The notes beneath the pieces are model-generated. The model saw nothing but the letters and a program-made list of their open reading frames with translations, did no database searches and was not told where the DNA came from. 64,000 nucleotides of DNA from Candidatus Buchananbacteria bacterium (lineage in GTDB: Bacteria > Patescibacteriota > Patescibacteriia > Buchananbacterales > UBA6539), in the NCBI GenBank assembly GCA_041664165.1, contig JBAYLH010000006.1, positions 143-64,142 of the forward strand, in the 5' to 3' direction. Shown here in pieces: positions 8,751 through 63,812 of this stretch; positions within the stretch are counted from its first letter, which is position 1; each line of letters starts with the position of its first letter. Both the position numbers and the translations under genes were made by a program.

Positions 8751-8795
8751 CTGAAGAATCCCTGCCTGCCGGCAGGCAGGTCAGAGATTCTTCAG
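8751..8795. repeat. Palindromic hairpin element ctgaagaatc-cctgcctgcc|ggcaggcagg-gattcttcag (REP-like, possible glmS terminator)
   Basis: A perfect 20-bp inner palindrome with 10-bp outer arms. Related cctRcc..ggYagg palindromes occur at 13215-13236 and 48075-48096. Confidence 0.6.
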
Positions 8796-12593: not shown

Positions 12594-13160
12594 TTACTCT
12601 AAAATTTCCAGAACCATATCACGCAACTTTTCAAACTTCACATAGCCAGCTTTTTTGTTAAAGTGTCCCGCATTCGGCACAAAGGAAAGCTCAACGCCGA
12701 GATTCTTTGCAAGCTCTTTGCCGTTTTCTAATCCAACATAGGGGTCATCATCAGACTGAAAAACTACAAAGTGTTTAGCTTTATTCTTAATTTTGTCCCA
12801 GTCAAAGGTAAAACCACTAAAACTGTTGTCTCGGTCATAGTTCGCGATAGGGCGAACTCCAACCGGAGTTCCTACGAAGAATGCAGCTTTAACTGGATGC
12901 GTTAATTTTTCCAATACACGCAAAGTGAAAATGCCACCCAAACTATGCCCGACTAAGAGAGTGTCTTCGTTGATATACTGCTCATAATTTTTAAGGACAT
13001 CAAACCACTCGGATATTTTTGCAGGAACTATGGGAGGCGAAGGAAACTGTGGGACAAATACTTTATGTCCTTTTTGTTCCAATTCCTGCTTCATCCAAGG
13101 AAACCAGTTTTCTTCTGGGTAGCCTTCTGTGCCGTGGAATATAAAAATGTTGTTTTTCAC
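12594..13160 (-). CDS. Alpha/beta hydrolase, RBBP9/YdeN-like serine hydrolase
   Basis: GHSLGG nucleophile elbow, about 190 aa, no signal peptide. Confidence 0.7.
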   Translation of the reverse strand: MKNNIFIFHGTEGYPEENWFPWMKQELEQKGHKVFVPQFPSPPIVPAKISEWFDVLKNYEQYINEDTLLVGHSLGGIFTLRVLEKLTHPVKAAFFVGTPVGVRPIANYDRDNSFSGFTFDWDKIKNKAKHFVVFQSDDDPYVGLENGKELAKNLGVELSFVPNAGHFNKKAGYVKFEKLRDMVLEILE

Positions 13161-13182
13161 AGATATACGTAGATACGAGTGG

Positions 13183-13208
13183 ATTTGGTGGACCCGAGCG
13201 GATTCCCC
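13183..13208 (-). repeat. Decayed copy of a tRNA 3'-end (tggtggacccgagcggattccccgcc)
   Basis: Similar to the 3' acceptor/T-arm of tRNA-Ala at 14426 (tggtggactcgaggagattcgaactcc). It cannot fold into a tRNA. Confidence 0.6.
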
Positions 13209-13584
13209 GCCAGAGCCTACCTATTGGCAGGTAGGGCGGGTCAGCCTTCGGCTGAGAACTCTCGACCCCGCACTAAAACCCGCGAAAGTTTTTTGCAAAG
13301 AGATTAACTTTAATTGGCGCAAAAGCCGCCTATGGCTGTTAAAAAATAATTATTTGTTTTAAATTATTGGTTTAGTGCGGGGCAAGCCTCCATATTGTCC
13401 CGATAATTTTGGTGGTGTTATTTTAGCATTTGCTCGAACTTTTTTCAACCAAGAATGAATCGTCCCGCCACCGCCTCACAAAGCCTCGGCAAAAAACTCT
13501 TTAATCATTTTTGCCTTTATTAATAACTTTTAATCGCTAATTAAAGCTTAATATAGCTTTTAATCCCCCTTTTTTAAAAATTTA

Positions 13585-13614
13585 TTGACTCTTTCTCATT
13601 GGTAGTGGTAAAAT
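13585..13614 (+). promoter_or_regulatory. Sigma70-like promoter (ttgact-N17/18-taaaat)
   Basis: Hexamers lie directly upstream of the ATG at 13622, which lacks a clear SD. Confidence 0.45.
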
Positions 13615-13621
13615 ATCAGAT

Positions 13622-14116
13622 ATGATAGAAAAAAGGTTTTTTTCTCCAATTCAAGGCAAAACTATTGAGCAATTAGTCAAGGCTGAAAGAGAAGCCAAAA
13701 TAAAAAAAGCTGTGGATCGACGGGATAAGATTCAACGCCGACGAACCAAATGGACCAATGAGGCCTTAGCCATTAAAGCAGGCACGTTTTATGGAGTTAA
13801 AAAAGAAGAACTTCAACCGCCTGAAAAATCAAAGGGAGGAAGCTTGGCTGAAAGAGAAGCAACCATCAGCGCAGAACTTAGTGAGGAGGTAGAAACACCA
13901 GCAGTAACTTCAACCGCCAAACCTGAGGGCACCTCATCTCAACCTTCAACCACAGGCAAGACGGACACCATTATTTCGTATAGACCAGATCTAATAAGAT
14001 CTTCAAATACAATAAGCAAACATCCTTTTGCCCATGATCCAGCAGATGATGAAAAAAGAGGTTTTTTTAGTCGTACTTGGAGAAAAATAAAAGAATCTGT
14101 CAAAAGAGGCTGGTAA
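13622..14116 (+). CDS. Hypothetical protein, K/R-rich N-terminus and S/T-rich low-complexity centre
   Basis: Long ORF with promoter and terminator. No recognizable domain. Confidence 0.5.
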   Translation: MIEKRFFSPIQGKTIEQLVKAEREAKIKKAVDRRDKIQRRRTKWTNEALAIKAGTFYGVKKEELQPPEKSKGGSLAEREATISAELSEEVETPAVTSTAKPEGTSSQPSTTGKTDTIISYRPDLIRSSNTISKHPFAHDPADDEKRGFFSRTWRKIKESVKRGW

Positions 14117-14130
14117 ATATAGTTTTTTGG

Positions 14131-14155
14131 TGGACCCGAGGAGACTCGCCCCGAT
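14131..14155 (-). repeat. Decayed tRNA 3'-end copy (tggtggacccgaggagactcgcccc)
   Basis: Matches the 3' 25 nt of tRNA-Ala with substitutions. The T-arm partner is absent. Confidence 0.6.
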
Positions 14156-14202
14156 GTCGACTGACCGCGGAATCGGGGTCATGATTTCTCCCAATGTTAA
14201 AT

Positions 14203-14236
14203 CGGGATGCCGACTAAACGTCGGCATTTATTTTTA
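14203..14236 (+). terminator. Rho-independent terminator (atgccgac-taaac-gtcggcat + T-run)
   Basis: 8-bp stem followed by ttatttttaaaa. It lies downstream of CDS 13622-14116. Confidence 0.6.
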
Positions 14237-14292
14237 AAATAATTTGTGCGTCGGGAAACCCTTGACCCCCACATTGTCCCGACAAACTTTTG

Positions 14293-14318
14293 GACCCGAG
14301 CGGATTCCCCGCCACCTC
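14293..14318 (-). repeat. Decayed tRNA 3'-end copy (ttttggacccgagcggattccccgcc), preceded by an attgtcccga motif
   Basis: Near-identical to the copy at 13183. The upstream attgtccc motif also occurs at 13395 and 14405. Confidence 0.6.
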
Positions 14319-14425
14319 TCAGTAAACTCGAGGTGGTCTTGAGTTTTACCGAAAGGCCAGAGGCGGGTGCGCCTCTGGCGCAGAACTATAGGTCTACGCA
14401 GCAGTCTATTGTCCCAAAAAATTAT

Positions 14426-14501
14426 GGTGGACTCGAGGAGATTCGAACTCCTGACCCCCTGCTTGCAAAGCAGGTGCTCTAGCCAGCTGAGCTACGAGCC
14501 C
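14426..14501 (-). tRNA. tRNA-Ala (anticodon UGC), CCA encoded
   Basis: RC reads GGGCTCGTAGCTCAGCTGGCTAGAGCACCTGCTTTGCAAGCAGGGGGTCAGGAGTTCGAATCTCCTCGAGTCCACCA, with a G3:U70 pair and a standard cloverleaf. Confidence 0.9.
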
Positions 14502-14538
14502 TAGATTTTTAATCGTTGTTTCACTCCGGGTTTATTTT

Positions 14539-14793
14539 TTAGCGTAAGGCTGGGAAAAAGAGTTTCATGATCCCTTTCAAAACAGATTCAATCAAATTAG
14601 TCATGATTAGAAAACCAATGATGCTGAGTAAAATCCCGATTAATTTGTAGGCTAGCCGGCTGCCGCCTTCGGTTCCCAAATATTTATCAGCTGAAGGAAT
14701 GGCTCCGAAATTTTCATAAAACCACGGAGCTTTAATGGTTACTAAAGCGCCAACAGCAGTAACGATTAAGCCGAGAATAATTCTGCCAATCAT
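14539..14793 (-). CDS. Small membrane protein, 2 TM helices, hypothetical
   Basis: 84 aa, hydrophobic segments, intergenic position between tRNAs. Confidence 0.4.
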   Translation of the reverse strand: MIGRIILGLIVTAVGALVTIKAPWFYENFGAIPSADKYLGTEGGSRLAYKLIGILLSIIGFLIMTNLIESVLKGIMKLFFPALR

Positions 14794-15114
14794 ATAGTAA
14801 AATAAATTCTAAATTCTAATATCTAAATTTAAAATGTTCCAAACGGTTTGAGATTGATGATTTGGAAAATTGAAGTTTGTTTCGGATTTAGAATTCCAGG
14901 CTTCGGCTTTAAGTTATTGGTGGACGATGTAGGAATCGAATCCCACACCAAAACCCGCGGTGTAGTTAGTTATTTTTTGAGCTTTTTTGGTCGCGGAACC
15001 GGCCGTGCCTTGTTTTTATATAATTTTAGTTTTGATTATTGGTTTGGTACGGGACAGGCCTATGATTTTTTTGGGCTTCGCCGGCCGGAGTCGGCTTTAT
15101 AGAAGTTAAATAAA

Positions 15115-15188
15115 TGGGTGGTGAGGGATTCGAACCCCCGACTTTCTGCATGTAAAGCAGACGCTCTAACCAACTGAGCTAACCACCC
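15115..15188 (-). tRNA. tRNA-Val (anticodon UAC)
   Basis: RC reads GGGTGGTTAGCTCAGTTGGTTAGAGCGTCTGCTTTACATGCAGAAAGTCGGGGGTTCGAATCCCTCACCACCCA. Confidence 0.9.
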
Positions 15189-15283
15189 TTACAACTTCGG
15201 CCGACGAAAGTCGGTGTAATGCTGCCTGCCGGCTAATCGTCCCTAGCATTGGCAGAGGAGATTGCATATCTAAATTTTATCAA

Positions 15284-15300
15284 ATGCGGACGAGAGGATT
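15284..15300 (-). repeat. 17-nt duplicate of the tRNA-Leu 3' end (tgcggacgagaggattt), followed by the hairpin repeat gcgcctctggcgcagaac
   Basis: Identical to 15351-15367. The hairpin gcgcctctggcgc also occurs at 14369-14390, and a related ttccgccaRaggcggat string at 47318. Confidence 0.6.
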
Positions 15301-15350
15301 TTCCGCCAAAGGCGGATGCGCCTCTGGCGCAGAACCTGCATCTACTAAAA

Positions 15351-15434
15351 TGCGGACGAGAGGATTTGAACCTCCAAGGCCTTGCGGCCACAGGCCCCTC
15401 AAGCCTGCGTGTATACCAGTTCCACCACGTCCGC
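15351..15434 (-). tRNA. tRNA-Leu (anticodon GAG), long variable arm
   Basis: RC reads GCGGACGTGGTGGAACTGGTATACACGCAGGCTTGAGGGGCCTGTGGCCGCAAGGCCTTGGAGGTTCAAATCCTCTCGTCCGCA. Confidence 0.85.
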
Positions 15435-15659
15435 CTAAGGGTGTGTATATTTACCCCGCTTCAAGCCGGAAGAAAGACTTAAATTTAGCGGCCAAAAGCC
15501 GTAGGCGACTCCCGAGGTATAAATTTTGTTATTGGCAAAACTTTTTTGGGCTTGAGGCGGGGCCAGTTCCACCCTGCCTACCGCCCGTCTAACGGCAGTT
15601 AGGGCAGACAGGCACGTCCGCCTAGTTAGGGAGCGGAGTTTATAAAATCAGCCAAAAAA

Positions 15660-16049
15660 TTATTTTTGTTCGATCTTTTTTTCGCTCAGCCGCTTTTTAT
15701 AATTTCTCAGGTAATAAAGCTTAGCTTTCCGGGTATTGGCTTGTTTGACCGGTTCGATTTTGATGACGTTTGGTGAATGGAGAGGAAAGATTTTTTCCAC
15801 GCCGATACCGTCAGAAACTTTTCTGACCGTGATAGTTGAACCGGTTTCTTTGCCGTGTTTATGAGCGATAATCATGCCTTCAAAGACCTGAATTCTTTGT
15901 TTTTCGCCTTTTGGGCCGATTTCGGTGATTCTTTGGTGAACTTTGACCGTCATGCCCGATTTCAAAACCGGCAACGGCTGTTTTTCGATTTTCTTTTGGG
16001 AGAGCTTATCTTCATGCTCAGCTTTTTTTGACTTTTTTTCCTTAGCCAT
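15660..16049 (-). CDS. rplS: 50S ribosomal protein L19 with a K-rich N-terminal extension
   Basis: LKSGMTVKVHQRI...GEKQRIQVFEGMIIA...RKAKLYYLR is the L19 signature. Confidence 0.85.
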   Translation of the reverse strand: MAKEKKSKKAEHEDKLSQKKIEKQPLPVLKSGMTVKVHQRITEIGPKGEKQRIQVFEGMIIAHKHGKETGSTITVRKVSDGIGVEKIFPLHSPNVIKIEPVKQANTRKAKLYYLRNYKKRLSEKKIEQK

Positions 16050-26261: not shown

Positions 26262-26338
26262 GCCCATGTAGCTCAGTTGGTTAGAGCGCCACCCTTATAA
26301 GGTGGATGTCCCTGGTTCAAGTCCAGGCATGGGCACCA
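26262..26338 (+). tRNA. tRNA-Ile with genomically encoded anticodon UAU, CCA encoded
   Basis: GCCCATGTAGCTCAGTTGGTTAGAGCGCCACCCTTATAAGGTGGATGTCCCTGGTTCAAGTCCAGGCATGGGCACCA, anticodon loop CTTATAA. Confidence 0.8.
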
Positions 26339-26403
26339 TATAAAATTGAATAGTTGACAATTGGCGGATTATCGCTTATTCTAAAAAAGTTAACATTTAT
26401 TAA

Positions 26404-26480
26404 GGGCGTATAGCTCAGTTGGTTAGAGCGTTACGTTGACATCGTAAAGGTCCGTGGTTCGAGTCCACGTACGCCCACCA
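26404..26480 (+). tRNA. tRNA-Val (anticodon GAC), CCA encoded
   Basis: GGGCGTATAGCTCAGTTGGTTAGAGCGTTACGTTGACATCGTAAAGGTCCGTGGTTCGAGTCCACGTACGCCCACCA. Confidence 0.9.
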
Positions 26481-47172: not shown

Positions 47173-47473
47173 ATATTTTTAGTATAACAAAAAACACCTC
47201 CCCCTGTTTACCGGCCCGCTATGCCGAAGCGTCAGCGAGGCGAGCAGGCAGGCGAAATAGGGGAGATGCCTTCTCCTGAAACTACGAACACTTTAGCAGG
47301 TTCAGGCGACCTACAGGAATTTCCGCCAGAGGCGGATCTGCTTTTTGTATTTAATAAGGTGGCGGGAAACCCGTAGCGAGAGTGCCACCCGCCCGCCTGA
47401 GCGGCAAATATAAAAGCACATAGGGGTGGCTAGAGGGAATCGTCCCGATTTTAGAATAATCAATCAACTCAAG

Positions 47474-47547
47474 GGTGGCCTACGGGAATCGAACCCGTAA
47501 CGAGAGTGCCACAAACTCTAGTGATAACCATTTCACCAAGGCCACCA
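47474..47547 (-). tRNA. tRNA-His (anticodon GUG) with encoded G-1
   Basis: RC reads G-GTGGCCTTGGTGAAATGGTTATCACTAGAGTTTGTGGCACTCTCGTTACGGGTTCGATTCCCGTAGGCCACC. Confidence 0.85.
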
Positions 47548-47617
47548 TAAAGCCACCTTTGAGTTGATATTGTCAATCGGGATCCCGACTTCATTAATAA
47601 TATAATAATTTTTTGGG

Positions 47618-47690
47618 TCGGGAAACCCTCAACGAGAGTGCCACAAACTCTAGTGATAACCATTTCACCAAGGCCACCATGGACTAATTT
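47618..47690 (-). pseudogene. Pseudo-tRNA-His: intact 5' two-thirds, deleted T-loop and lost 3' acceptor strand
   Basis: 47640-47690 is identical to 47497-47547. The T-arm is reduced to gggtttcccgac and the acceptor 3' strand is replaced by an A-run. Confidence 0.7.
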
Positions 47691-47704: not shown

Positions 47705-47776
47705 CGCCCCCGCGTGGAATCGGACCACGATCTAAGGCTTAGAAGGCCCTCGTTCTATCCATTGAACTACAGGGGC
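47705..47776 (-). tRNA. tRNA-Arg (anticodon UCU)
   Basis: RC reads GCCCCTGTAGTTCAATGGATAGAACGAGGGCCTTCTAAGCCTTAGATCGTGGTCCGATTCCACGCGGGGGCG. Confidence 0.8.
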
Positions 47777-48358
47777 TCAAGATAGGTTATGATATCAGAC
47801 TGAGACAGGGCGAGTGACAAGAGCAAAACCTTTTTCGTCCATATAAATTCATGAGAGTCAGGCGAGTCGGGCGGGGAAGGCTGTTGCTCTATCTAGTTGC
47901 TCGCCTCGCATCGCCAGCTAGATGGGCTACGGCGAAGCGGGAGCTACGGGATCTTATATTATTAGGCTCTCGCTTACCTCGCCTAAAATTTTTATTTTAA
48001 ACTATTTTTTTGAAAATGTAAGTCGACCTGCCCGCCAGCGGCTGCACCTTAGATTAGGGGTAAAATGTGACACCTGCCTATCGGCAGGCAGGAATGAGGC
48101 AGTCTTTACGGTAGCCTTTTTTTATTTGACTAACAAGAATAAATGTAGTCTATTATAAAATACGGGAAAAGTCAATTCAAATATTTATAAAAAATTTCCG
48201 CCGACTGCCTGAAAAGCCGGTTGGTTTTGGTGAAAAAGCAGTCGAAACTGGAAAGATAGGAACAATTGAAAAGAATGATTGGCAAAAACTATGAGTGGGA
48301 GTATACTTAAAATAGTCCTGTTTTTCGCTGGGTTAAAACATAATCAACAAGATAGGGT

Positions 48359-62786: not shown

Positions 62787-63812
62787 ATGCCATCGAAAAT
62801 CTCATTAAAACAGCCATTGTTAATTGCCAGTATTGTGGGAATTGTATTTTATTCAGTAATTATTTTATTTCTGATTTTTGGTTCGCCTGTTCAGGGTTCT
62901 GATACAAAGCCCGCCTCACCGACCAATAGTCAGGCTTTGCAAAATTTAATTGACGGAAAGTCAGTCGAAGCTATCTGGGGTATCACTTTTCCAAAACAAC
63001 CGAGCCTGCCTGCCGGCCAGGCAGGTGCGGGGCTGCCAATTCGTCTAAAAATTCCAAAGATTAATATTAATATTGCTCTTGAGTCGGTAGGTCTTACGCC
63101 TCAGGGAGCGGTGGATGTACCAAAAGACCCCGCTAACGCTGCCTGGTTTAATCTCGGGTCGCGTCCCGGAGATAATGGTAGTGCCGTTATTACCGGCCAT
63201 TATGGCTGGTGGAAAGACGGTACGTCCGGGATATTTAATAATTTATCTAAATTAAAAAAGGGAGACAAAATATACGTCCAGGATGACAAAGGAACAATTA
63301 TTACCTTTGTGATTAGTGAATTTCAGACGTATGATCCGAATGCGGATGTTCCAGAAGTGTTTAACTCAAATGACGGAAAAGTACACCTTAATCTCATCAC
63401 CTGCGAAGGAGTTTGGAATAAAAGTGCCAAACAGTATTCCAAGCGGTTAGTGGTGTTTGCCGATAAAGAAGAAGTAAACAGCAGCAATCTGATCGCATTT
63501 GCTGGCGTGATGTCCGCAGCATCTGCCCCGGCTGTTGTGACGCCTGCCCCCGCGGCTCCCGCGGCCTGCACTACTGCCGCCACTTTTACCAAGTTTTTGT
63601 CTTTTGGGAGTACTCAAAAGCAGGTTCGCCAGCTTCAAAATCTCCTGCAGTGTCTGGGCTACTTTCCGGCCGATGTCGCGCCGACTGGCTATTTCGGTCA
63701 GGCGACCGAAGATTCAGTCAAAAAATTTCAATCGGCAAACGGCATTGAAGCTGCTGGTTATGTGGGACCAGCTACTCGCTCGGCTCTTAATCATTATGTC
63801 GTGATGAAATAA
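62787..63812 (+). CDS. Sortase (TLxTC cysteine transpeptidase) fused to a C-terminal peptidoglycan-binding domain (PG_binding_1-like)
   Basis: N-terminal TM anchor, LNLITCEG catalytic Cys motif, and C-terminal LQNLLQCLGYFPADVAPTGYFGQATEDSVKKFQSANGIEAAGYVGPATRSAL. Confidence 0.7.
   Translation: MPSKISLKQPLLIASIVGIVFYSVIILFLIFGSPVQGSDTKPASPTNSQALQNLIDGKSVEAIWGITFPKQPSLPAGQAGAGLPIRLKIPKININIALESVGLTPQGAVDVPKDPANAAWFNLGSRPGDNGSAVITGHYGWWKDGTSGIFNNLSKLKKGDKIYVQDDKGTIITFVISEFQTYDPNADVPEVFNSNDGKVHLNLITCEGVWNKSAKQYSKRLVVFADKEEVNSSNLIAFAGVMSAASAPAVVTPAPAAPAACTTAATFTKFLSFGSTQKQVRQLQNLLQCLGYFPADVAPTGYFGQATEDSVKKFQSANGIEAAGYVGPATRSALNHYVVMK

Follow-up and report, generated by a model that had tools for sequence, protein, structure and literature searches.

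Origin of the tRNA pieces beside three intact tRNA genes

What process left serial pieces of tRNA around three intact tRNA genes in the genome of a Candidatus Buchananbacteria bacterium? In the window (the whole stretch of DNA analysed, 64,000 nucleotides), an initial annotation had recognized intact tRNA-Ala, tRNA-Val and tRNA-Leu genes interleaved with tRNA-like strings, all in a single orientation, and had read the strings as scars of site-specific integration and excision. All the strings that it named are present where it placed them. Using ARAGORN and Rfam, we confirmed that tRNA-Ala(tgc), tRNA-Val(tac) and tRNA-Leu(gag) are intact and lie on the minus strand, as do all of the pieces.

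Employing 110 Ala, Val and Leu tRNAs from the same and related genomes as queries, we searched the region 13100-15700 with the intact genes masked. Seven non-overlapping matches of at least 24 bits were obtained, five of them at 34-40 bits, whereas shuffled controls (n = 30) gave 0.7 matches on average and a best score of 30.2 bits. Clearly, the scattered partial tRNA copies around the Leu, Val and Ala genes are real and well above chance.

Three displaced 3' halves are stacked at tRNA-Ala

The intact tRNA-Ala(tgc) gene (14425..14501), the youngest, inner gene of the stack, carries almost the same allele as L004 (L numbers designate loci and assemblies used for comparison). Its leader and trailer show 6-bp complementarity, and a degenerate right arm, TAATTTTTTGGGA (14412-14424), follows it. 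Beyond this arm lie three displaced tRNA-Ala 3' halves on the minus strand, designated C, B and A, of which A is the outermost and oldest. Half C (14291..14411) consists of CAAT... (14383-14411), the hairpin TGCGCCAGAGGCGCA (14368-14382), a further inverted-repeat unit, CCCGCC...GGCGGG, whose interior is 50 nt long (14308-14367), and GAATCCGCTCGGGTCCA (14291-14307); the piece 14290-14307 is identical, at 18/18 positions, to the 3' end of tRNA-Ala in L008. A cassette right arm, AAAGTTTGTCGGGA (14277..14290), connects the end of C with the beginning of B. Half B (14128..14276) consists of CAATGTGGGGGTCAAGGGTT (14257-14276; 20/20 versus positions 38-57 of L012 tRNA-Ala), a T-loop insert of 109 nt that begins with TCCCGACGCAC (14148-14256) and GAGTCTCCTCGGGTCCACCA (14128-14147). 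The segment between B and A (13398..14127, no strand assigned) holds orf164 and the decayed 3' end of a tRNA-like sequence, ...CACCACCA, after which comes the arm AAATTATCGGGA (13398-13409). Half A (13186..13397) consists of CAATATGGAGG (13387-13397), a variable-loop inverted-repeat element GCCCCGCACTAAACC...GGGTTTTAGTGCGGGG (13266-13383), TCGAGAGTTC (13256-13265), a T-loop insert of two hairpins (13206-13255) and GAATCCGCTCGGGTCCACCA (13186-13205; 20/20 versus the tRNA-Ala 3' end of L003).

The Ala strings had been taken for 3' ends, each preceded by an attgtccc motif. The origin from tRNA-Ala is correct and so is the motif, which on the minus strand reads GGGA|CAAU, the end of a cassette joined to C36-A37-A38 of the anticodon loop; the units are therefore 3' halves, from position 36 to the end, rather than mere 3' ends. 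In A, B and C, the T-stem halves on the two sides of the T-loop insert fail to pair; each insert thus marks a junction of different copies, and in half B different alleles meet there. Linkers between successive Ala halves are just 13-14 nt long, and the 14-mer AAAGTTTGTCGGGA is also found between intact tRNA-Ala and a displaced 3' half in L009, L012, L145, L159, L162 and L163. Such a linker, common to other species, is therefore not decayed island DNA.

Two small open reading frames had been regarded as hypothetical intervening DNA. For orf164 (13622-14116, plus strand) the term hypothetical is apt: it is known from its own genome only (a single-member cluster), with no family match and no relative in the 80 loci. 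The other (14539..14793, minus strand), an 84-aa membrane-protein gene, is resident and conserved rather than cargo: 18 related loci have it between tRNA-Val and tRNA-Ala.

tRNA-Leu, tRNA-Val and tRNA-His genes are nested within older copies

The intact tRNA-Leu(gag) (15351..15434, minus strand; 52.3 bits) lies between two parts of an older tRNA-Leu on the same strand. Read directly against the intact gene, the outer 5' part (15443..15622) resolves into GCGGACGTG (15613-15621), a GC hairpin of 40 nt (15573-15612), GTGGAACTGG (15563-15572), a 109-nt element with inverted ends CCCCGCCTCAAGCC / GGCTTGAAGCGGGG (15454-15562) and TAAATATACAC, the remainder of the D arm (15443-15453). What had been described as a scrambled Leu pseudo-tRNA is thus an ordered tRNA-Leu 5' part (15443-15621; positions 1-9, 10-19 and ~20-26) with two interruptions. 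The outer 3' part (15285..15342) comprises the 5' strand of the T stem with GTTC (15332-15342), a double GC hairpin in the T loop, TGCGCCAGAGGCGCA-TCCGCCTTTGGCGGA (15302-15331), and AAATCCTCTCGTCCGCA (15285-15301), which matches the 3' end of the window's own tRNA-Leu at 17/17 positions, the perfect copy noted in the initial annotation.

Upstream of the intact tRNA-Val(tac) (15115..15188, minus strand), whose allele resembles that of L011, is a 5' remnant of an outer tRNA-Val (15211..15242, minus strand). It comprises GGACGATTAGC (15232-15242), in which the 5' strand of the acceptor and the first part of the D stem of a clade-typical allele are preserved, and ATTACACCGA, from the anticodon loop (15211-15220). 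GGACGATTAGC is identical to positions 1-11 of tRNA-Val in L003, L007 and L014, and is complementary to ATCGTCC, the acceptor 3' strand of the outer 3' part downstream (14918..15066, minus strand). The latter is made up of the 5' strand of the T stem, ATCATAGG (15059-15066), an inverted-repeat element of 118 nt, CCTGTCCCGTACCAAACC...GGGTTTTGGTGTGGGA (14941-15058), paralogous to the element in Ala half A, and TTCGATTCCTACATCGTCCACCA (14918-14940). The string at 14913-14945, previously called His-like and likened to tRNA-Ala, therefore contains the 3' end of a tRNA-Val (22/23 versus L013).

A second hotspot is located at 47305..47678 (minus strand), where an intact tRNA-His (47473-47545) is nested in the T loop of an older tRNA-His. 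Positions 1-47 of the outer gene plus GAGGGTT (47624-47678) are followed by an empty hairpin module TCCCGAC...GTCGGGA (47583-47623), a left arm (47547-47582), the inner gene, a right arm ending ...ATCGGGA (47443-47472), and the rest of the outer T loop with CCCTC and the acceptor 3' strand (47423-47442). Next comes a third 3' piece of tRNA-His (47305-47389), which carries an insert in its T loop. The outer T-stem halves, GAGGG and CCCTC, pair with each other, whereas the inner gene has ACGGG/CCCGT instead.

Fragments follow common rules across related loci

The fragments found in the window and in 25 of 81 related loci share the strand of an intact gene and lie at a distance of 14-300 nt from it, 5' fragments upstream and 3' fragments downstream; they break at positions 34-41, 56-59 and 20-25. 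Breaks in the window fall in the anticodon loop (G35|C36), the T loop and the D loop, and 5' parts are found upstream of Leu, Val, His and Arg. The break points adjoin short inverted repeats (TCCCGA...TCGGGA) or GC hairpin pairs. Leader/trailer pairing of at least 8 bp was seen in 12 of 223 tRNA contexts, all 12 of them tRNA-Ala and 11 ending in TCGGGA. Outer pieces are clade-typical alleles (L003/L008 for Ala halves A and C, L003/L007/L014 for the outer Val), and the inner genes are different alleles. L009 is a double nest and L163 a triple one.

A GIY-YIG nuclease gene occupies the same layout in relatives

The initial annotation had suggested checking whether a prophage or ICE occupies this site in related strains. 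Where relatives retain a gene inside the same layout, it encodes a small GIY-YIG nuclease rather than an integrase. In related Patescibacteria, ultra-small (CPR) bacteria, a complete GIY-YIG (Slx1/UPF0213-like) gene and an intact tRNA-Ala lie between G35 and C36 of a split tRNA-Ala. The complete cassette has two modules side by side, both with inverted repeats at their boundaries. Module 1 (TCCCGA ... TCGAGGA) contains the gene for a GIY-YIG nuclease of 80-90 aa, bacterial Slx1/UPF0213 in type, and module 2 (TCCTCGA-arm ... arm'-TCGGGA) contains an intact tRNA between complementary arms. The layout with the nuclease gene was found in 7 separate contexts, with nesting up to three deep; the ORF sits within module 1 in identical layout in L023, L172, L173, L192, L198, L204 and L210, with Pfam GIY-YIG E-values of 1e-13 to 5e-20. 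In L172, both outer halves still make a perfect tRNA-Ala. In L039 and L071, the GIY-YIG ORF begins 1-4 nt past the tRNA and runs up to a displaced 3' half with 100% identity. At L19-anchored loci, 10/10 GIY-YIG ORFs lie no more than 200 nt from a tRNA.

L210 shares the synteny of the window (L19-Leu-Val-orf84-Ala) and has GIY-YIG ORFs exactly at the places of the window's relics, one of them after a Leu 5' fragment at the place equivalent to the window's Leu 5' part. The 64-kb window contains no GIY-YIG ORF or detectable remnant of one, and the tRNA-His nest shows the complete two-module layout without an ORF; the link of the window to the nuclease therefore rests on shared anatomy and synteny. 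Among the loci compared, no species offered both a filled site and its empty counterpart, and we found no published description of a tRNA-within-tRNA layout with a nuclease cassette.

Probable relics of nuclease cassettes that carry a replacement tRNA

The pieces in the window are probably ORF-less relics of self-targeting nuclease cassettes that inserted serially, each carrying a replacement tRNA. Three things are observed directly: how the pieces are arranged, that this arrangement recurs across species, and that relatives have a nuclease gene within it. In the proposed mechanism, small mobile cassettes would insert into tRNA-gene loops, at G35/C36 of tRNA-Ala and in the T loop or D loop of other tRNAs, and would bring their own replacement tRNA. 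The resident gene would be split, its 5' part staying upstream and its 3' part downstream, while the cassette tRNA assumes the function. Because the cargo tRNA would restore the target site, the next insertion would fall inside it, and repetition would produce Russian-doll nests and stacks of displaced halves; the three stacked Ala 3' halves (C, B, A) and the nested Leu, Val and His genes may represent such products. The nuclease presumably cuts the tRNA gene, and the cassette may spread via break repair in a homing-like manner. Homing-endonuclease genes do not typically have short inverted repeats at their ends, and a transposase-like or structure-specific mechanism could operate instead. The Ala stack lacks 5' halves, so the proposal needs an extra deletion step: the Ala 5' halves and the nuclease gene may have been lost by recombination between duplicated 5' halves.

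Where loops of the dead copies contain paired GC hairpins or longer inverted-repeat units, we read these as emptied modules. The hairpin pairs and the 110-120-nt inverted-repeat elements could also be an unrelated family of small palindromic repeats, which enters a rival explanation: tandem tRNA duplication, after which spare copies were wrecked by REP- or MITE-like palindromes preferring loop-like targets (TTG|CAA, TTC|GAA), the nuclease genes of relatives being passengers. T-loop hairpin pairs with compensatory changes recur in several species, the long inverted-repeat elements of A, D and the Leu piece are paralogous, and one hairpin pair (L005 2940) lies far from any tRNA, all in favour of this rival. 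However, tandem duplication does not explain the order 5' part, intact gene, 3' part or the triple nests; outer and inner copies represent distinct alleles whose stems are matched, and the nuclease ORF has a fixed place within inverted repeats in 7 contexts. We consider this course of events unlikely.

Less probable still are classical att scars, left as serial attR copies by tyrosine or serine integrases of prophages, ICEs or islands that inserted at tRNA 3' ends and were later deleted. 3' fragments downstream in direct repeat are the familiar pattern of tRNA genes targeted by integrases, and the window has such fragments past the intact gene, some of which match other species' alleles. Against this, 5' fragments lie upstream of four tRNA genes, and an element with a tRNA 3' end alone leaves no 5' parts. 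An intact tRNA sits in the T loop of an older one, the short linkers between Ala halves are conserved across species, and breaks lie in anticodon, T and D loops beside short inverted repeats. As the initial annotation had noted, an integrase is missing (none was called within ~10 kb of the two hotspots); a search of 2.9 million viral contigs yielded no corresponding attP, and relatives carry the GIY-YIG nuclease in this layout. Of the original reading, repeated insertion into tRNA genes is supported, but the model of integrase attL/attR repeats is not.

We give little credence to functional RNAs, with unit A as a tmRNA-like molecule, the halves as split or intron-containing tRNAs joined as RNA, or the pieces as tRNA decoys. 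In favour of such RNAs, a possible G3:U70 accompanies the terminal ...GGGTCCACCA of the units, a long helix common to A and D includes two compensatory changes, the outer halves of L172 are intact, and the arms lengthen the acceptor helix of the inner tRNA. However, ARAGORN found no tmRNA, and no tmRNA, group I intron or other Rfam match was obtained up to E 10; neither A nor D contains a plausible frame for a tag. At the boundaries the helix is continuous and lacks the bulge-helix-bulge required for archaeal-type splicing, most outer halves have mismatched stems (e.g. the T stems of A, B and C), and unit content and number vary between close species. Metagenome mis-joins at repeated tRNA sequences are very unlikely: although short contigs often stop in these repeats (L084 ends within tRNA-His) and contigs with the nuclease are in many cases short, the same layout is present in independent assemblies of other samples (L002 with 100% identity across the Leu part of the hotspot, L083 reproducing the second hotspot gap-free at 99.65%), and the architecture occurs in dozens of unrelated assemblies, one on a contig of 698 kb.

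Comparison with known systems

SegB of phage T4 is a free-standing GIY-YIG homing endonuclease in a tRNA gene cluster; it cuts the tRNA region of genomes without SegB, drives copying of itself and its flanks, and has been reported to promote segmental amplification of tRNA loci (PMC2330249; PMC13096335). A GIY-YIG nuclease gene among tRNA genes is common to both systems. However, SegB is a longer, I-TevI-like phage protein with a DNA-binding domain, whereas the CPR proteins are minimal (80-90 aa, Slx1/UPF0213-like), and SegB shows no tRNA-gene splitting, inverted-repeat modules, replacement tRNA or nested halves. In integrase islands and prophages, too, mobile DNA supplies a partial tRNA, the gene stays functional, the resident part is displaced and serial events produce direct repeats; here, in contrast, whole tRNAs are carried, 5' parts are displaced as well, and inserts of just 50-450 nt have short inverted-repeat boundaries and a nuclease rather than a recombinase. 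Paquin, Laforest and Lang reportedly described in 1994 a mobile GIY-YIG ORF in the mitochondrial atp6 of Allomyces that brings a replacement 3' end of the host gene. There, an endonuclease gene with a copy of the displaced target part likewise yields a hybrid functional gene and a remnant, but the target is an organellar protein-coding gene with the ORF fused in frame, and there are no nests or inverted-repeat modules.

Archaeal integrated elements leave tRNA fragments (PMC3293823). Group I introns with homing endonucleases, often GIY-YIG, reside in anticodon loops of bacterial tRNAs and have been reported as frequent among metagenomic assemblies of unnamed phyla (PMC3984707; bioRxiv 10.1101/2020.01.27.920355). 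They resemble the cassettes in insertion site and in the GIY-YIG gene inside, but the cassettes have no ribozyme core (~70 nt is neither ORF nor tRNA) and no Intron_gpI match, and are rescued via a second tRNA copy, not by splicing. Disrupted tRNAs of archaea include multiple-intron, split and tri-split forms and mobile introns (PMC4033280, PMC10714607). They share interruptions in D, anticodon, variable and T loops and complementary sequences beside the breaks, whereas here the lineage is bacterial, bulge-helix-bulge motifs are absent and the halves are decaying and redundant with an intact gene. In fractured genes, a free-standing endonuclease gene splits a host gene bearing split inteins (PMC2677866); a nuclease gene again lies between two halves of a host gene, but function is restored there by protein trans-splicing and here by the carried replacement gene.

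Two ORF-bearing elements (L182, L207) lie in ordinary intergenic spacers without a tRNA, which counts against the cassette proposal; the occurrence of one nuclease protein, P0058, in two genomic contexts with different cargo tRNAs supports it.

Displaced tRNA fragments at the first hotspot

The ribosomal protein L19 gene (15660-16049, minus strand), whose closest counterparts (83% and 80% identity) are in Buchananbacteria MAGs (Patescibacteria, or CPR), has all features of the first hotspot (about 13.1-15.7 kb) downstream of it. ARAGORN and Rfam identified three intact genes there on the minus strand, tRNA-Leu(gag) (15351-15434), tRNA-Val(tac) (15115-15188) and tRNA-Ala(tgc) (14425-14501). The order L19-Leu-Val-84-aa membrane-protein gene-Ala is kept in about 12 related species, so the ORF at 14539-14793 is a resident gene rather than cargo. 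The initial annotation had taken this ORF and that at 13622-14116 for small hypothetical proteins in intervening DNA; the latter does encode a hypothetical protein, but the former belongs to the conserved gene order.

We compared 110 Ala, Val and Leu tRNAs from this and related genomes with the region 13100-15700 after masking the real genes. Seven separate tRNA-fragment matches of at least 24 bits were found, five of them at 34-40 bits, whereas shuffled controls (n=30) gave a mean of 0.7 matches and a maximum of 30.2 bits. The repeated strings were located where they had been annotated, and their likeness to tRNAs held beyond the shuffled controls. Several fragments are identical to parts of tRNA alleles from other species, as seen in the displaced tRNA-Ala 3' halves designated units A, B and C (L-numbers denote related loci or contigs): the last 20 nt of unit A are the 3' end of L003 tRNA-Ala, the first 20 nt of unit B are positions 38-57 of L012 tRNA-Ala, and the 3' end of unit C is that of L008 tRNA-Ala. 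The piece at 14918-14940, described earlier as His-like, matches the tRNA-Val 3' end of L013 at 22 of 23 positions and is therefore a Val piece.

Anatomy of the displaced pieces

The anticodon arm of tRNA-Ala reads CCACA-UUUGCAA-UGUGG, and the Ala units open with ...GUCGGGA/CAA-UGUGG, so that they start at C36. In L009 and L012, 5' halves ending ...CCACAUUUG/UCCCGA... lie upstream of the intact tRNA-Ala. Because of these halves, 'attgtccc', initially reported as a motif preceding the Ala 3' ends, is read instead as the junction of the end of an inserted element (...TCGGGA) with the second half of the anticodon loop. Boundaries of the type TCCCGA...TCGGGA adjoin tRNA-loop breaks in the window, including the His nest at 47423-47678: GTCGGGA/CAAT was found at 14277-14290/14276 and ATCGGGA/CAAT at 13398-13404/13397, and the insert in unit B begins with TCCCGAC.

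All displaced pieces are on the minus strand. The 5' part of an outer (older, split) tRNA-Leu (15443-15622) is interrupted by a 40-nt hairpin after position 9 and, after position 19, by a 109-nt element whose inverted ends span 14 bp; its T arm, whose T loop contains a double GC hairpin, and its exact 17-nt 3' end occupy 15285-15342. The outer tRNA-Val left a 5' remnant, GGACGATTAGC (15232-15242), and a 3' part (14918-15066) in which a 118-nt inverted-repeat element separates G53 from U54 and the acceptor strand ATCGTCC pairs with the upstream GGACGAT. A 14-nt linker, AAAGTTTGTCGGGA, connects Ala 3' half C (14291-14411) with half B (14128-14276), and a 730-nt segment containing orf164 and a decayed tRNA end leads from B to half A (13186-13397). 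A T-loop insert is present in each of A, B and C; since the T-stem strands flanking it do not pair (GAGAG/CCGCU, AAGGG/CUCCU and UAUAG/CCGCU, respectively), each insert is a junction between different tRNA copies.

orf164 (13622-14116, plus strand) encodes a 164-aa hypothetical protein between halves B and A, on a segment bearing CCACCAAAA on both flanks, and may be the cargo of one insertion. It matched neither Pfam nor PHROG, had no relative in 80 related loci and formed a single-member cluster; a cargo of known role was therefore rejected.

The long inverted repeats of unit A (13266-13383) and of the Val 3' part (element D, 14941-15058) differ at four paired positions; at two of these, both bases have changed in a compensatory way (C-G to U-A in one case, U-A to C-G in the other). 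Complementarity of the ends is therefore being maintained or regenerated.

A tRNA gene nested within a tRNA gene

At the second hotspot, an outer split tRNA-His with a nest occupies 47423-47678 (minus strand). The first 47 nt are identical to positions 1-47 of tRNA-His; the T-stem strand GAGGG and UU come next, and then a 41-nt hairpin (TCCCGAC...GTCGGGA). TCCCGAT and an arm ending ATCAACTCAA then precede the intact tRNA-His, which is followed by the complementary arm TTGAGTTGAT terminating in ATCGGGA and by CGAUU-CCCUC-UAGCCACC, which completes the outer T loop and supplies the partner T-stem strand together with the acceptor 3' strand. The order of these pieces indicates that an older tRNA-His was split after U55 by an insert of ~180 nt holding a working tRNA-His. 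The inner gene is nested in the T loop of the older one, with inverted repeats TCCCGA...TCGGGA on either side, and lies between complementary arms. At the tRNA-Ala of the window, arm complementarity is reduced to a 6-bp remnant, compared to 9-12 bp in relatives.

A further His 3' piece, the third, has a T-loop insert and occupies 47305-47389 (minus strand), and a tRNA-Arg(tct)-like 5' half (GATCCCGTAGCTC, insert, AACTAGATAGAGCAACAGCCTTC; about 47876-47955, minus strand) lies upstream of the intact tRNA-Arg at 47705-47776. For the same tRNA-Arg, L044 possesses the full set of 5' half, intact gene and 3' half. Such relics accompany 5 of the 7 tRNA genes of the window; none was found at the Ile/Val tRNA pair at 26262-26480.

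Recurrence and allele exchange in related species

Fragments were found in 25 of 81 L19-anchored loci, and one position rule held in them: 5' fragments lie upstream and 3' fragments downstream of the intact gene, on the same strand and 14-300 nt away. They are often 100% identical to the intact gene, and their break points cluster at positions 34-41, 56-59 and 20-25. Fragment content and number vary even among the closest species (L003 is nearly clean, L004 has another set), so they are recurrent events rather than an inherited array. The outer copies are clade-typical alleles, and the inner copies are other alleles. Scanning metagenomes with the linker of the window, we found six more contigs in which the linker connects an intact tRNA-Ala to a displaced 3' half. 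Among these, L163 is a triple nest, in which the anticodon loop of one tRNA (T0) is split by a unit holding a second (T1), whose T loop is in turn split by a unit holding an intact third (T2).

At the syntenic tRNA-Val(tac) locus of L003-L028, acceptor stems differ widely between sister species (GGACGAU, GGGCAAC, GGGCAGC, GGGUUCG, GGGUGGU and others). Judged from these sequences, the variety looks like allele replacement rather than slow divergence.

A GIY-YIG nuclease gene in the same anatomy

In L039 and L071, a protein of 86-87 aa is encoded between an intact tRNA-Ile and its displaced 3' half, which is 100% identical; the reading frame opens 1-4 nt past the tRNA and ends at a small palindrome adjoining the displaced half. 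Pfam identified these proteins as GIY-YIG (E-values 1e-13 to 5e-20). The L19-anchored loci contain 10 GIY-YIG ORFs, each of them less than 200 nt from a tRNA.

L023 showed the full design, hereafter the cassette. On the left, the outer tRNA-Ala 5' half (...CTGCTTTG) abuts TCCCGAT, followed by the GIY-YIG ORF and ATCGAGGA; on the right, TCCTCGGAAAAATG, the intact cargo tRNA-Ala and CATTTTTTCGGGA are followed by the outer 3' half (CAAGCAGG...). The L023 protein has 336 relatives at E-values up to 1e-8, and the named ones are nearly all from Patescibacteria, annotated merely as 'GIY-YIG nuclease family protein'. Its closest solved structures are the UPF0213 proteins BH0048 and EF2693; UPF0213 proteins are the minimal bacterial Slx1-like branch of the GIY-YIG superfamily (PMC1564403).

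We looked up the genomic context of seven relatives of this protein. The nuclease design is present in seven separate contexts (L023, L172, L173, L192, L198, L204 and L210), and the two-module design splits tRNA-Ala(UGC) or tRNA-Ala(CGC) between G35 and C36. In L172, the outer halves together would still make a perfect tRNA-Ala. One identical protein, P0058, was found in two genomic contexts, each with its own cargo tRNA and arms. L210, a 698-kb contig with synteny as in the window, carries two GIY-YIG ORFs, the first flanked by a Leu 5' fragment and tRNA-Leu and the second within a split tRNA-Ala, exactly the places of the ORF-less relics in the window. L182 and L207 have a GIY-YIG module and an empty hairpin module in ordinary intergenic spacers, after yqeY and after a DNA ligase gene; since no tRNA is involved in these copies, the element is not strictly tied to tRNA genes.

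Among 223 distinct tRNA contexts, pairing between leader and trailer was mostly at most 4 bp. Perfect pairing of at least 8 bp was found in 12 contexts, all of them tRNA-Ala, 11 ending in TCGGGA. Complementary arms around the tRNA are specific to the cassette design. The junction of the modules in L023, L172, L192, L207 and others is a perfect palindrome, TCGAGGATCCTCGA, and the outer ends, if joined, would read GTCCCGA/TCGGGAC. The element thus carries the same 6-7-nt motif four times, in alternating orientation, which suggests putative protein-binding sites.

With nine GIY-YIG proteins as queries, tblastn detected no GIY-YIG ORF or recognisable remnant in the 64-kb window (best E-value 0.17, all chance matches); a candidate nuclease pseudogene beside unit A proved to be the N-terminus of a hydrolase gene. 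Because the ORF is absent from the window and present in the same anatomy in relatives, the window holds relics rather than a complete cassette. They are inactive relics of a family whose active members occur in relatives.

Alternative origins of the fragments

A classical integrase model, in which the fragments are att-site scars, ranks lower than the cassette. Integrative elements at tRNA genes are known to carry a copy of the gene part that they displace, and the integration-scar reading of the initial annotation was right in spirit but wrong as to the kind of element and the identity of the repeats. The absence of an integrase, noted in the same annotation, was borne out: gene calls up to ~10 kb from either hotspot include no recombinase family, and relatives carry GIY-YIG genes. 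Scars of att sites would be 3' segments downstream only, which is contradicted by the Leu, Val, His and Arg 5' parts upstream. Nor do the gaps resemble island DNA between att sites: successive Ala halves are just 13-14 nt apart, the linker is conserved across species, and the B-to-A gap alone contains a gene (orf164). In 2.9 million viral contigs scanned for an attP with GTCGGGACAATRTGG, the 59 hits were all chance matches in coding DNA; the double hairpin had zero hits in the same contigs.

A model of palindromic repeats only also ranks lower. As in MITE/REP-like elements, terminal inverted repeats and several dispersed copies were found. The GC hairpin pairs read TGCGCC..GGCGCA and then CCCGCC..GGCGGG, with compensatory variants in other species. 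By fuzzy pattern search (a strict automatic search missed known copies), the double hairpin was located in 8 sources at ~11 sites, of which 10 are no further than 81 nt from a tRNA; the sole non-tRNA copy (L005) is flanked by a 12-nt direct repeat. The window has three long (110-120-nt) inverted-repeat units. We found no target-site duplication at the T-loop hairpin sites and identified no cognate transposase. Both the hairpin pairs and the 110-120-nt units are arranged as two inverted-repeat pairs, like the modules of the cassette. The weakest link in the cassette reading is that they would be modules, either emptied or non-autonomous, that inserted into the loops of dead copies. Away from tRNA genes, GC-rich palindromes of the CCTGCC..GGCAGG type occur at 8761-8780, 48073-48088 and 63009-63025, and resemble the hairpins inside tRNA fragments at 15573-15612 and 13215-13235.

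The units could instead be functional RNAs, a model that ranks lower still. Units A-D were initially read as tmRNA-like RNAs starting GGGACAAU and ending CUCGGGUCCACCA, with a long P2-like helix; relatives showed that GGGA/CAAU is the element end joined to the anticodon loop, which rejects tmRNA or another known RNA. Neither ARAGORN nor Rfam (E-values up to 10) gave any match to these units. For unit A (13186-13397), ARAGORN detected no tmRNA, no Rfam model of the tmRNA clan matched at E-values up to 10, and no plausible tag frame could be read. A group I intron was likewise rejected, its ribozyme core (P3-P9) not being detectable by covariance model: Intron_gpI had no match in the window region at E-values up to 10 or in ORF-bearing inserts of relatives at E-values up to 1, in a run that detected the 23S introns of L163. 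Bulge-helix-bulge splicing does not fit either, because the boundaries (...CACAUUUG/UCCCGA...UCGGGA/CAAUGUG...) read as a continuous helix with no 3-nt bulges.

An assembly artefact ranks lowest, since assemblies made independently from other samples show the same layout: L002 has 100% identity over the Leu part, and L083 has 99.65% identity with zero gaps over the second hotspot.

Proposed mechanism and significance

The anatomy comprises two modules bounded by inverted repeats, one with the nuclease gene or a short AT-rich remnant and the other with an intact tRNA, inserted in tRNA loops, with displaced halves on both sides and nesting. In the likeliest mechanism, the GIY-YIG nuclease would cut the tRNA gene, or a hairpin formed by it, and the break would be repaired through copying of the cassette, whose cargo tRNA would keep the cell alive. 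As the cargo recreates the target, it could be hit again, giving nests and stacked halves. The nuclease module and the outer 5' half would be lost when duplicated 5' halves recombine, leaving tRNA, right arm and displaced 3' half, the state of the Ala array of the window and of L145.

We tentatively propose, with slightly less than even confidence, that these cassettes represent an undescribed class of mobile elements in Patescibacteria, in which the gene of a minimal GIY-YIG nuclease of the Slx1-like type is paired with a cargo tRNA duplicating the element's own target. Because the cargo is such a copy, the element could invade single-copy essential tRNA genes without splicing; because the target is recreated, it would keep invading itself, producing tRNA-in-tRNA nests and rapid allele replacement between species. 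In a bolder form of the proposal, the long helices of the inverted repeats may give the split outer halves or the relic hairpins a function as RNA, such as a part in processing or a decoy role against tRNA-cutting nucleases. Counting against the mechanism, neither a nuclease gene nor a recognisable remnant of one is present in the window, homing-endonuclease genes do not usually have terminal inverted repeats, and no pair of filled and empty sites was found within one species.

CPR genomes are ~1 Mb in size and their tRNA genes mostly single-copy, so insertion into a tRNA gene should be lethal. The cassettes appear to escape this by bringing a spare copy of the broken gene, without an intron ribozyme or integrase. 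A mitochondrial GIY-YIG element in atp6 reportedly also carries a copy of the gene part that it displaces. The GIY-YIG nuclease SegB of phage T4 acts on tRNA gene clusters (PMC2330249, PMC13096335). In the literature searched, which left most subscription journals outside, we found no description of a minimal Slx1-like nuclease with a replacement tRNA in a split bacterial tRNA gene. Nor did that literature describe a whole replacement tRNA flanked by complementary arms, a bacterial tRNA gene interrupted in its anticodon or T loop by an insert that lacks an intron ribozyme, or the nested tRNA genes that result.

The window alone gives a more modest result, a hotspot of inactive relics. If the cassettes do escape lethality in this way, this would account for large tRNA-allele differences between sister species at one syntenic locus and for assembly breaks at tRNA loci in CPR genomes. 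The widespread, uncharacterised small 'GIY-YIG nuclease family proteins' would gain a testable role and a predicted target (tRNA-Ala, between G35 and C36), and annotators would be alerted to hairpins and pseudo-tRNA halves beside tRNAs as relics of elements. The cassettes would also be a bacterial, DNA-level counterpart to the disrupted tRNA genes of archaea.

The 23S rRNA gene of the window

The 23S rRNA match at 844-1298, which the 5S rRNA follows, covers model positions 2656-2912 only, and the upstream part of 23S had no match within the window. By this analysis, the gene may be interrupted. 23S genes in this group are often intron-bearing, and the 23S gene of L163 gave group I intron matches.
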